From a virus (taxonomy: Duplodnaviria; Heunggongvirae; Uroviricota; Caudoviricetes), in IMG/VR virus record IMGVR_UViG_2879759574_000006: DNA of 21,082 nt, one strand, 5' to 3'. The translations under genes and the position numbers were made by a program. Below are positions 5,350 through 10,018 of the stretch, piece after piece; position 1 is the first letter of the stretch, and each line of letters begins with the position of its first letter. A model generated the notes under the pieces. That model did no database searches, had not been told where the DNA came from, and saw nothing but the letters and a program-made list of their open reading frames with translations.

Positions 5350-5420
5350 GTAAGCGTACAGCCTGAACCGTCTGGTCAGAATCTGACGAATTAGACAAAG
5401 TGGTGTCCACCAAATAAGTA

Positions 5421-5822
5421 GTGGGAACCAAAGTGTCAGATATGCAGAAAAATGTGAATCCCGGCAGGCGAAAAGGCTGCCCTAATTATCCTCCCGAATT
5501 TAAACAGCAGCTCGTTGCTGCCTCCTGTGAACCCGGGATATCCATCTCAAAACTTGCTCTTGAAAATGGCATTAACGCCAATCTGTTGTTCAAATGGCGA
5601 CAACAATGGCGCGAGGGAAAGCTGCTATTACCTTCTTCAGAGAGCCCCCAGCTACTTCCTGTGACTCTCGATGCAGCTGCCGAACAGCCAGAATCGCTCG
5701 CAGAGGATCCGGAAACCCTCAGTATCAGCTGTGAGGTAACGTTCCGGCACGGGACGCTCCGCTTCAATGGCAATGTCAGCGAAAAGCTCCTGACTCTGCT
5801 GATACAGGAACTGAAGCGATGA
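5421..5822 (+). CDS. tnpA: IS66-family accessory protein TnpA (orfA)
   Basis: 133-aa ORF, first of three; ATGA overlap with orfB; alternative ATG start at 5442. Confidence 0.8.
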   Translation: MGTKVSDMQKNVNPGRRKGCPNYPPEFKQQLVAASCEPGISISKLALENGINANLLFKWRQQWREGKLLLPSSESPQLLPVTLDAAAEQPESLAEDPETLSISCEVTFRHGTLRFNGNVSEKLLTLLIQELKR

Positions 5823-6166
5823 TCCCGTTACCTTCCGGGACCAAAATTTGGCTGGTTGCCGGTATCACCGATATGAGAAATGGCTTCAACGGCCTGGCGG
5901 CAAAGGTGCAGACGACGCTGAAAGACGATCCGATGTCAGGTCACGTTTTTATCTTCCGTGGGCGTAATGGCAGTCAGGTAAAGCTCCTCTGGTCTACCGG
6001 CGATGGACTGTGTCTGCTGACCAAACGGCTGGAGCGCGGCCGCTTCGCCTGGCCGTCAGCCCGGGATGGCAAAGTGTTCCTCACACCGGCACAGCTGGCG
6101 ATGCTCCTTGAAGGTATCGACTGGCGGCAGCCTAAAAGACTGCTTACGTCCCTGACTATGTTGTAA
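5819..6166 (+). CDS. tnpB: IS66-family TnpB (orfB)
   Basis: 115-aa ORF starting MIPLPSGTKIWLVAGITDMRNGF, the conserved IS66 Orf2 N-terminus. Confidence 0.85.
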   Translation: MIPLPSGTKIWLVAGITDMRNGFNGLAAKVQTTLKDDPMSGHVFIFRGRNGSQVKLLWSTGDGLCLLTKRLERGRFAWPSARDGKVFLTPAQLAMLLEGIDWRQPKRLLTSLTML

Positions 6167-6214
6167 GCCTCTTTATCCTGGTCGACGCTGAATGAGCCTG
6201 GTAATATACCCGGT

Positions 6215-7753
6215 ATGAGCAGCTCACTTCCTGACGATATCAATGCACTGAAACGTCTCCTTGCCGAACAGGAGGCGCTGAACCGTGCCCTGCTGGAAAA
6301 GCTGAACGAGCGTGAACGCGAAATAGACCATCTGCAGGCACAGCTGGATAAGCTGCGCCGGATGAACTTCGGCAGCCGCTCCGAAAAAGTCTCCCGTCGT
6401 ATCGCACAGATGGAAGCTGACCTGAAGGCACTTCAGAAAGAAAGTGATACCCTTACCGGTCGGGTTGACGACCCGGCCGTGCAGCGCCCGCTGCGTCAAA
6501 CCCGCACCCGCAAACCGTTCCCCGAATCACTCCCCCGCGATGAAAAACGGCTGCTGCCGGCAGCGTCATGCTGCCCGGAATGTGGAGGCTCACTGAGCTA
6601 TCCGGGTGAGGATGCCGCCGAACAGCTGGAGTTGATGCGCAGCGTCTTCCGGGTTATCCGGACTGTACGTGAAAAGCATGCCTGTACTCAGTGCGATGCC
6701 ATCGTGCAGGCCCCCGCGCCTTCACGGCCCATCGAGCGGGGTATCGCAGGACCGGGGCTGCTGGCCCGCGTGCTGATCTCAAAGTATGCAGAGCACACCC
6801 CGCTGTACCGCCAGTCTGAAATGTACGGCCGCCAGGGCGTGGAGCTGAGTCGTTCACTGCTGTCGGGCTGGGTGGATGCATGCTGCCGGCTACTGTCACC
6901 GCTGGAAGAAGCGCTTCAGGACTATGTGCTGACTGACGGTAAGCTCCATGCTGATGACACGCCTGTCCCGGTGCTGTTGCCAGGCAATAAGAAAACGAAG
7001 ACCGGGCGGTTATGGACCTACGTTCGTGACGACCGTAACGCCGGGTCAACGCTGGCGCCGGCGGTGTGGTTCGCTTACAGCCCGGACAGAAAAGGCATCC
7101 ATCCGCAGACCCATCTTGCGGGGTTCAGTGGTGTACTGCAGGCGGATGCATACGCCGGGTTCAACGAGCTGTACCGGGATGGCCGGATAACGGAAGCCGC
7201 CTGTTGGGCTCACGCCCGCCGTAAAATCCACGATGTGCACGTTCGCACCCCGTCAGCCCTGACGGAGGAAGCGCTGAAACGGATCGGCGAACTGTACGCC
7301 ATCGAGGCAGAGATAAGGGGAATGACGGCGGAGCAGCGCCTTGCCGAACGTCAGTTGAAAACGAAACCGCTGCTGAAATCCCTGGAAAGCTGGCTGCGTG
7401 AAAAGATGAAAACCCTGTCGCGACACTCAGAACTGGCGAAAGCGTTCGCATACGCCCTGAACCAGTGGCCGGCGCTGACGTACTATGCAGATGATGGCTG
7501 GGCTGAGGCGGACAATAACATCGCTGAAAATGCGTTGCGGATGGTCAGTCTGGGACGCAAAAACTACCTGTTCTTCGGTTCGGATCATGGAGGAGAGCGG
7601 GGAGCGCTGCTGTACAGCCTGATCGGGACGTGCAAACTGAACGGAGTGGAGCCAGAAAGCTACCTCCGCTATGTCCTTGACGTCATAGCCGACTGGCCGA
7701 TAAACCGGGTCGGCGAACTGCTCCCCTGGCGCGTAGCACTGCCGACTGAATAA
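6215..7753 (+). CDS. tnpC: IS66-family transposase TnpC (intact, 512 aa)
   Basis: Large third ORF with N-terminal coiled-coil region, CxxC...CxxC zinc motif (CCPECGG...CTQCD) and conserved C-terminal catalytic region; the only intact tnpC among three copies. Confidence 0.9.
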
Positions 7754-7789
7754 CACATCCCGTCAATACGGTTCTTGCTGCACGCTTAC

Positions 7790-8342: not shown

Positions 8343-9095
8343 GGGACAGGCGTGTCATCAGCATGGAGCTTACCGTCAGTCAGCACATAATCCTGAAGCG
8401 CTTCTTCCAGCGGTGACAGTAGCCGGCAGCATGCATCCACCCAGCCCGACAGCAGTGAACGACTCAGCTCCACGCCCTGACGGCCGTACATTTCAGACTG
8501 GCGGTACAGCGGGGTGTGCTCTGCATACTTTGAGATCAGCACGCGGGCCAGCAGCCCCGGTCCTGCGATACCCCGCTCGATGGGCCGTGAAGGCGCGGGG
8601 GCCTGCACGATGGCATCGCACTGAGTACAGGCATGCTTTTCACGTACAGTCCGGATAACCCGGAAGACGCTGCGCATCAACTCCAGCTGTTCGGCGGCAT
8701 CCTCACCCGGATAGCTCAGTGAGCCTCCACATTCCGGGCAGCATGACGCTGCCGGCAGCAGCCGTTTTTCATCGCGGGGAGTGATTCGGGAACGGTTTGC
8801 GGGTGCGGGTTTGACGCAGCGGGCGCTGCACGGCCGGGTCGTCAACCCGACCGGTAAGGGTATCACTTTCTTTCTGAAGTGCCTTCAGGTCAGCTTCCAT
8901 CTGTGCGATACGACGGGAGACTTTTTAGGAGCGGCTGCCGAAGTTCATCCGGCGCAGCTTATCCAGCTGTGCCTGCAGATGGTCTATTTCGCGTTCACGC
9001 TCGTTCAGCTTTTCCAGCAGGGCACGGTTCAGCGCCTCCTGTTCGGCAAGGAGACGTTTCAGTGCATTGATATCGTCAGGAAGTGAGCTGCTCAT
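8343..9095 (-). pseudogene. tnpC: tnpC fragment of IS66 copy 2 (nonsense codon 57 and 3' truncation)
   Basis: Start codon at 9093-9095; GAA to TAA change at 8925-8927 relative to copy 1; coding sequence ends at the 8343 breakpoint. Confidence 0.8.
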
Positions 9096-9143
9096 ACCGG
9101 GTATATTACCAGGCTCATTCAGCGTCGACCAGGATAAAGAGGC

Positions 9144-9491
9144 TTACAACATAGTCAGGGACGTAAGCAGTCTTTTAGGCTGCCGCCAGTCGATACCTTC
9201 AAGGAGCATCGCCAGCTGTGCCGGTGTGAGGAACACTTTGCCATCCCGGGCTGACGGCCAGGCGAAGCGGCCGCGCTCCAGCCGTTTGGTCAGCAGACAC
9301 AGTCCATCGCCGGTAGACCAGAGGAGCTTTACCTGACTGCCATTACGCCCACGGAAGATAAAAACGTGACCTGACATCGGAGCGTCTTTCAGCGTCGTCT
9401 GCACCTTTGCCGCCAGGCCGTTGAAGCCATTTCTCATATCGGTGATACCGGCAACCAGCCAAATTTTGGTCCCGGAAGGTAACGGGATCAT
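9144..9491 (-). CDS. tnpB: IS66-family TnpB (orfB), copy 2
   Basis: 115 aa, one substitution relative to copy 1 (LKDAPMSG versus LKDDPMSG). Confidence 0.8.
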   Translation of the reverse strand: MIPLPSGTKIWLVAGITDMRNGFNGLAAKVQTTLKDAPMSGHVFIFRGRNGSQVKLLWSTGDGLCLLTKRLERGRFAWPSARDGKVFLTPAQLAMLLEGIDWRQPKRLLTSLTML

Positions 9492-9889
9492 CGCTTCAGT
9501 TCCTGTATCAGCAGAGTCAGGAGCTTTTCGCTGACATTGCCATTGAAGCGGAGCGTCCCGTGCCGGAACGTTACCTCACAGCTGATACTGAGGGTTTCCG
9601 GATCCTCTGCGAGCGATTCTGGCTGTTCGGCAGCTGCATCGAGAGTCACAGGAAGTAGCTGGGGGCTCTCTGAAGAAGGTAATAGCAGCTTTCCCTCGCG
9701 CCATTGTTGTCGCCATTTGAACAACAGATTGGCGCTAATGCCATTTTCAAGAGCAAGTTTTGAGATGGATATCCCGGGTTCACAGGAGGCAGCAACGAGC
9801 TGCTGTTTAAATTCGGGAGGATAATTAGGGCAGCCTTTTCGCCTGCCGGGATTCACATTTTTCTGCATATCTGACACTTTGGTTCCCAC
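9488..9889 (-). CDS. tnpA: IS66-family TnpA (orfA), copy 2
   Basis: 133 aa, one substitution relative to copy 1 (NGISANLL versus NGINANLL). Confidence 0.8.
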   Translation of the reverse strand: MGTKVSDMQKNVNPGRRKGCPNYPPEFKQQLVAASCEPGISISKLALENGISANLLFKWRQQWREGKLLLPSSESPQLLPVTLDAAAEQPESLAEDPETLSISCEVTFRHGTLRFNGNVSEKLLTLLIQELKR

Positions 9890-10018
9890 TACTTATTTGG
9901 TGGACACCACTTTGTCTAATTCGTCAGATTCTGACCAGACGGTTCAGGCTGTACGCTGATATGACTTTCCGTGTCAAACCGGAATCTCTAATTTTGACGA
10001 TTTTCTTTTTAGGTTTAA

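Follow-up and report, generated by a model that had tools for sequence, protein, structure and literature searches.

Structure of the insertion-sequence cluster

The window analysed here is the whole 21,082 nt stretch of the IMG/VR virus record IMGVR_UViG_2879759574_000006. It contains a nested cluster of insertion sequences (ISs) in a degraded ipaH prophage between pphA and ryeA/sdsR of a Shigella chromosome. At the core of the cluster, two copies of an ISEc22-like element of the IS66 family face each other with their left inverted repeats (IRLs) outward and a remnant of a second IS66-family element, referred to as ISx, between them; the segment between the homologous parts of the two copies has the opposite orientation in one related chromosome assembly.

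Copy 1 (5350–7789, plus strand; 2440 nt) is full length, with the termini GTAAGCGTACAGCC at 5350 and ...GCTGCACGCTTAC at 7789 (general form GTAAGCG...CGCTTAC); the following position, 7790, matches the third copy described below by chance only. The IS66-family gene order tnpA–tnpB–tnpC (DDE-type) is present, with tnpA at 5421–5822 (plus strand; NCBIfam NF047595, 97.4 bits, cut-off 74), tnpB at 5819–6166 (plus strand; NF033819, 119.9 bits, cut-off 50) and a tnpC of 512 aa at 6215–7753 (plus strand; NF033517, 465 bits, cut-off 180), which is the only intact tnpC in the window. The IS is 99.3–99.4% identical to E. coli copies to which NCBI gives the label ISEc22 family, the comparison being to those copies. 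ISEc22, whose relatives are ISEc8 and IS679, has the same tnpA–tnpB–tnpC layout and GTAAGCG...CGCTTAC termini. ISEc22 is listed at 2454 nt (PMC5001619, Table 2); the element differs from it in being 2440–2441 nt long here, in the truncation of copy 2 and in the E57* codon of copies 2 and 3.

Copy 2 (8342–9957, minus strand) runs from IS position 1621 down to position 4 and is truncated at the left end of ISx: it ends at position 1621, precisely where the ISx IRL abuts. Its tnpC contains E57* and two 1 nt deletions (in a C4 run and a C5 run), which are probably consensus errors because the same homopolymers are shortened in the copies of the CP026823 assembly (L013).

The 7790–8341 interval (minus strand) holds the first 552 nt of ISx, with the IRL at 8341 and the other side cut off by the right inverted repeat (IRR) of copy 1. 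It encodes a truncated TnpA (tnpA', 139 aa, 7837–8256, minus strand) with an NCBIfam IS66 TnpA match. The prediction, made from the letters alone, that the spacer is the remnant of a second IS66-family element was confirmed by full elements in E. coli FDAARGOS_943 and on pINV of RMDEC465, to which it is 99.3–99.5% identical over 552 of 552 nt. The full ISx in FDAARGOS_943 (L003) is ∼2506 nt long and is flanked by an 8 bp target duplication, TTTTAGCT.

Repeats were detected with a repeat finder and by self-BLAST of the window, and the element termini were read straight from the sequence. The left homologous arm (5350–6970, plus strand) corresponds to IS positions 1–1621 and aligns from 5353 to 6970 with 8342–9957 on the minus strand: 1618 aligned columns, 99.567% identity, five mismatches and two one-base gaps. 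Chance is excluded for an arm repeat of such length and similarity, and the original prediction of near-identical inverted IS66 copies of about 1.6 kb was right, including its coordinates. The separation of 553 bp given there applies only to the gap between the two elements, of which the exact value is 552 bp (7790–8341). The homologous arms themselves are 1371 bp apart (repeat finder, inverted pair), since copy 1 ends in 819 bp (6971–7789) that have no counterpart in the truncated copy. The segment between the arms (6971–8341), which is the inverting unit, thus comprises the 3' 819 nt of copy 1 (the tnpC end and IRR) and the 552 nt ISx remnant.

Comparison with related chromosomes

Relatives were long contigs found by searching for proteins exactly matching IpaH or a Rac protein of 65 aa; the loci compared carry numbers with the prefix L. 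CP026842.1 (L006) matches the window over 13,391 nt at 100% identity and is the source of the window, which is part of a closed 4.59 Mb chromosome and so gives no cause to suspect a short-read artefact. The cluster is present in five assemblies. Its orientation is that of the window in CP026842, CP026807 (L009), CP026823 (L013) and CP026840 (L015), and it is flipped in CP026828 (L007).

Only three contigs, CP026828.1 among them, encode the identical 571-aa IpaH. Positions 9614–15296 of L007 are collinear with window 1289–6970 and positions 16669–21716 with window 8342–13385, and the central 1372 nt are the reverse complement of window 6971–8341 (1369 of 1372 identical). In this chromosome the truncated copy lies on the tail-fibre side and the full copy on the ISSso6 side, with the truncated TnpA encoded by the plus strand. 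The junction of IS position 1621 with the ISx IRL is base-identical in all five assemblies; that of ISx position 552 with the IRR is base-identical in the window and in L007, L009 and L013, whereas CP026840 differs, retaining 25 additional nucleotides of true ISx (ISx positions 553–577; L015 6139–6163) at this point. With identical junctions around an inverted centre, exchange within the arms would have turned one state into the other, and an independent origin of the two orientation states is not credible from these sequences. The comparison thus offers direct evidence that the predicted flip has very probably occurred in nature. It also amends the prediction of an inverting spacer, in that the unit that inverts is the 1371 bp segment and not the 553 bp spacer alone.

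The additional ISx nucleotides of CP026840 imply that the junction in the window arose by a second deletion, of 25 nt, adjoining the IS end. Because CP026840 keeps the 25 nt lost in the other four, it is taken to represent an older state, with the window-like orientation ancestral; by parsimony the flip would most simply be placed on the CP026828 lineage. No clean strain tree was obtained from single-nucleotide polymorphisms (SNPs) in the flanks, where the tail-fibre region is mosaic and two assemblies contain indel errors.

Four further assemblies carry deletion derivatives. In L012 and L016 window positions 5343–8342 are deleted (7 nt of flank, copy 1 and ISx), with a junction, ...ATTTCAG/GGACAGG..., that does not lie at an IS end. 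In L005 and L011 the deletion extends from IS position 230 to inside ISSso6 and an IS3-family element is found at the junction. The cluster is visibly unstable over the timescale separating the compared strains. The L012-type layout, a single truncated copy beside the tail-fibre gene, was considered as the ancestral state and rejected; the window has seven more nucleotides of true tail-fibre sequence, as judged from the empty site in L017.

Among 72,556 plasmids and 5,426 complete E. coli genomes, no record covered at least 80% of window 4800–10500, and no description of the locus was found in literature searches on ISSso6, ISEc22 and IS110-into-IS66 targeting.

Variants in the arms

Three variable IS positions (226, 579 and 1573) distinguish the arms. 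In the window, L009 and L013 the left arm reads A/A/C and the right arm G/C/T at these positions; in L007 both arms read A/C/T; in L015 the left arm is A/C/C and the right arm G/A/T. The left arm of L007 therefore matches the prediction for a crossover between positions 226 and 579. In L015 position 579 is reciprocally swapped between the arms, as might be expected of the footprint of two flips with different crossover points, which this single site weakly suggests. The full copies of L009, L013 and L015 have tnpC broken by the loss of 1 nt at position 1603, a deletion not found in the window or in L007.

Mechanism and alternative explanations

The flip is most probably the outcome of ordinary homologous recombination between the inverted IS copies, a by-product of IS accumulation with no programmed switch. 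The two 1.6 kb arms would serve as substrates for the general homologous recombination of the cell. A reciprocal crossover anywhere within them would invert the 1371 bp middle, moving the tnpC 3' end and the ISx remnant between the arms, and non-reciprocal exchange (gene conversion) would carry base differences from arm to arm. For both the RecA dependence and the rate of the flip, we infer rather than observe. Hairpin or cruciform problems are unlikely with a spacer of 1.37 kb.

Inversions by homologous recombination between inverted IS copies are known in Shigella, in Bordetella pertussis (IS481) and in Yersinia pestis. The present case resembles them in its long near-identical inverted copies, in the occurrence of both orientations among close relatives and in the exchange of variants between the arms; it differs in scale (1.37 kb here, tens of kilobases to megabases there), and gene order and replication balance are unaffected. 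IS expansion in Shigella has been described (PMC7373316).

Several observations weigh against an inversion in CP026828. The flipped state is seen in one of the five informative assemblies, and a misassembly of CP026828 across the 4.6 kb unit, whose arms are longer than short reads, could have produced it from a repeat that is real but stable. The right arm of L007 reads A/C/T, not the G/A/C expected of a single reciprocal crossover, so that an additional conversion or a more complex history is needed. Polishing can misassign variants between repeat copies; same-project assemblies show homopolymer consensus errors, the window assembly and CP026823 carrying many 1 nt homopolymer deletions, and sequencing error may account for some of the differences between the arms. 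Moreover, a single structural character gives the direction of the flip, the flank SNPs being mosaic. An error in CP026828 is nevertheless unlikely, since the unit is merely 4.6 kb, within long-read length, and lies in a closed 4.64 Mb chromosome. Mis-orientation of the centre by an assembler would also leave the arms unchanged, whereas those of L007 depart from the usual flank-linked pattern as they would after a crossover (left arm A226/C579/T1573), and L015 has an independent reciprocal swap at position 579.

The indel errors of the window assembly could likewise be taken to favour a wholly artefactual inverted duplication, such as a collapsed repeat or a long-read product that is chimeric or palindromic. 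The suspicion voiced in the original prediction that the structure is partly artefactual did not hold up. The cluster recurs in five independent assemblies (CP026842, CP026807, CP026823, CP026840 and CP026828), and this recurrence of cluster and junctions means that it is not an artefact of one assembly. The deletion derivatives in the four further assemblies keep the outer junctions, and the arm differences are consistent and shared among strains. It would be very surprising if the duplication proved to be artificial.

No more credible is a functional device, whether in the form of a composite transposon whose arms are inverted ISs or of a programmed switch with a site-specific recombinase, despite the two orientation states and a layout like that of Tn5 or Tn10, in which two inverted copies of one IS surround a centre and the outer ends are of the same type. 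No target duplication surrounds the unit (flanks GAATAATC and TGTTATCC), ISSso6 interrupts the right outer end (IRL), the inner end of one arm is absent, and the centre consists of IS fragments only; in contrast to Tn5 and Tn10, the cluster thus has no flanking duplication or cargo. A composite transposon, which needs two intact outer IS ends and a flanking target duplication, neither of which is present, was rejected, and mobility of the cluster as a unit is unlikely. The fimS/FimBE and Hin/hix systems and the shufflons share with the cluster two alternative orientations of a DNA segment, but they use short specific repeats and a dedicated recombinase and control a gene. Here the repeats are 1.6 kb IS bodies, the unit lacks both short specific inverted repeats and any gene for an invertase, integrase or tyrosine recombinase, and it controls no host gene. 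A programmed switch was rejected as well, the unit encoding only IS66-family TnpA, TnpB and TnpC.

The invertible piece contains the tnpC 3' end and the tnpA' remnant of ISx only, with no host gene, and inversion by recombination between the arms is without evident effect on host genes because the piece consists of IS sequence alone. The flip would determine which arm joins the tnpC 3' end. In the window strain, were the crossover to fall downstream of position 1034, the 3' end would be joined to the E57* arm and the good copy truncated; with a crossover upstream of position 1034, tnpC would stay intact. It is doubtful that flipping of the 1.37 kb segment in a culture is frequent enough to switch IS activity on and off at random and to make the supply of ISEc22 transposase from the cluster phase-variable through general recombination. 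If it did, the tnpC 3' end would be joined to the intact 5' arm or to the E57*/frameshift arm according to the crossover site, and arm-to-arm conversion could repair or spread inactivating mutations.

The arrangement may have originated by two independent ISEc22 insertions in opposite orientations, or by one ISEc22 insertion followed by an intramolecular inversion-duplication. After either route ISx would have inserted at position 1621 of one copy; an adjacent deletion would then have extended from the IRR end of the other copy to ISx position 577, a further 25 bp deletion would have reached ISx position 552, and ISSso6 would have inserted into the IRL tip. In IS-free genomes (L017, L010) the tail-fibre site and the Rac site are separated by DNA that is missing from the cluster. 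The two routes are not discriminated, because no target duplication survives; reversing the copy 1/copy 3 or the copy 1/copy 2 inversion on paper restored no target duplications.

Consequences for assembly and typing

The hazard foreseen for short-read assembly was borne out. The contig with the gene for the 65-aa protein is shorter than 5 kb in 95 of 115 collection blocks, which fits contig ends at ISSso6 and at IS600/copy 3; these bound a 2.8 kb unique stretch. Orientation is readable only by linking unique flank across a 1.6 kb arm, where short-read assemblies break. The orientation of the 4.6 kb unit, and of the larger 11 kb segment bounded by copy 3, therefore cannot be inferred from short reads. 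As orientation varies between closely related Shigella dysenteriae genomes, structural comparison or typing across the ipaH island needs long reads. The elements (ISEc22-like, another IS66-family member and ISSso6) and their recombination behaviour are already known; the locus shows on a small scale how flips, arm conversion and deletions that remove arms continue to rearrange accumulated ISs.

ISSso6 and its insertion point

ISSso6, of the IS110 family, occupies 9958–11476 (minus strand). It was assigned from IS110 family matches and 99.7–99.9% identity to annotated ISSso6, and its ends were set against L001. It sits 3 nt inside the IRL tip of copy 2, between ...ACGCT and TAC. The outer IRL of copy 2 merely seems 3 nt short, since the displaced TAC, its final 3 nt, is found at 11477–11479 (minus strand); the Rac-like prophage flank begins at 11480. 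The empty site in L010 and L017 reads ...GGTGAC/TGTTATCCGGTCG.

ISSso6 is found at the same point and in the same orientation in IS66-family terminal repeats (...ACGCT/ISSso6/TAC...) in at least four independent insertions (window 9958–11476, L001 3001–4520, L009 3881–5400 and L009 15148–16667). The four targets are the IRLs of ISEc22 copies 2 and 3 and the two terminal repeats of ISx (IRL and IRR); CT dinucleotides occur at both ISSso6 junctions. On pINV of RMDEC465 an IS110-family gene adjoins an ISx IRL. By analogy the pattern looks like guide-directed targeting of the ends of another IS. For IS4321 and IS5075, IS110-family members of the IS1111 subgroup, the insertion targets are the terminal repeats of Tn21-family transposons. 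ISSso6 likewise occupies one set position, in one orientation, within a terminal repeat of a different mobile element, but its target is the IS66-family terminus ...ACGCT/TAC and not a Tn21-family repeat. When the non-coding ends of ISSso6 were searched naively for 6–8-mers matching the IS66 terminus, nothing convincing emerged, and a limited literature search found no description of IS110-into-IS66-terminus targeting.

The ISSso6 transposase (10223–11397) and recE (11998–13937) are each split into two frames in the window and in CP026823, and both are intact in CP026828, CP026840 and CP026807. In CP026842, upstream of the window, pqiA, the adjoining MlaD-domain gene and rsmF are split as well. 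Several of the indels fall in C/G homopolymer runs, and much of the frame splitting may be long-read consensus error rather than true pseudogenization.

The third ISEc22-like copy

Copy 3 (14331–16770, minus strand), which lies outside the region of the original prediction, is full length, opposite in orientation to copy 1 and in the same orientation as copy 2, with termini of the same type as those of copy 1 (GTAAGCG inverted repeats). By self-BLAST it is 99.88% identical to copy 1 (three mismatches) and 99.69% identical to copy 2. The G1034T change that gives E57* in tnpC is common to copies 2 and 3. In having T1034 and T1573, copy 3 of the window resembles copy 2 and differs from copy 3 of the other strains, a pattern suggestive of gene conversion between these two directly repeated copies.

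Copies 1 and 3 form a second inverted pair, 2.44 kb long with 6.5 kb between the arms, which could flip an 11.4 kb unit; the 1.6 kb direct pair formed by copies 2 and 3 could delete ∼6.8 kb including the recE remnant. Neither the copy 1/copy 3 inversion nor the copy 2/copy 3 deletion was seen among the relatives compared.

When all ends were compared, with a view to telling simple insertion from inversion between copies 1 and 3, no ISEc22 copy in the window was found to have an 8 bp target duplication; the 8 nt flanks are GAATAATC, GGATAACA and AAGTGAAG on the IRL side and GGTTATCC and GCTCCTTC on the IRR side. As is usual for the IS66 family, copy 3 of related strains does have one: in L009 and L012 it lies inside IS600 with the 8 bp duplication GAAGGAGC on both sides. 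Beside copy 3, L009, L012 and L013 have GAAGGAGC, IS600 positions 52–415 and then an IS911-like end. At 16771–16856 of the window the IS600 piece is replaced by 86 nt that are absent from all other loci compared, and this replacement beside the copy 3 IRL points to a further rearrangement specific to the window strain.

The ISx octamer beside the copy 1 IRR (7790–7797, GGTTATCC) and the Rac octamer beside the copy 2 IRL (11480–11487, TGTTATCC) match at seven of eight positions in the same reading direction. The Rac octamer TGTTATCC exists in the empty sites too, and the pair GGTTATCC/TGTTATCC forms no target duplication in either orientation state; the match may reflect chance or target preference.

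Genomic setting

From the left, the window contains pphA (277–936), the chromosomal ipaH (1676–3391), tail-fibre remnants and the IS cluster, followed on the right by Rac-like recE fragments, copy 3, IS911-like and IS600 sequences and the small RNA (sRNA) pair SraC/RyeA–SdsR/RyeB (20476–20620). In ordinary E. coli pphA neighbours yebY, and a look-up with pphA gave only loci without the island; from the pphA–yebY adjacency, ∼19.5 kb of the window are a degraded prophage island carrying ipaH. Rfam places the Shigella sRNA CssrB at 1365–1547 (minus strand), just upstream of ipaH, and pphA, CssrB and SraC/RyeA–SdsR/RyeB mark the borders of the ∼19.5 kb ipaH island.

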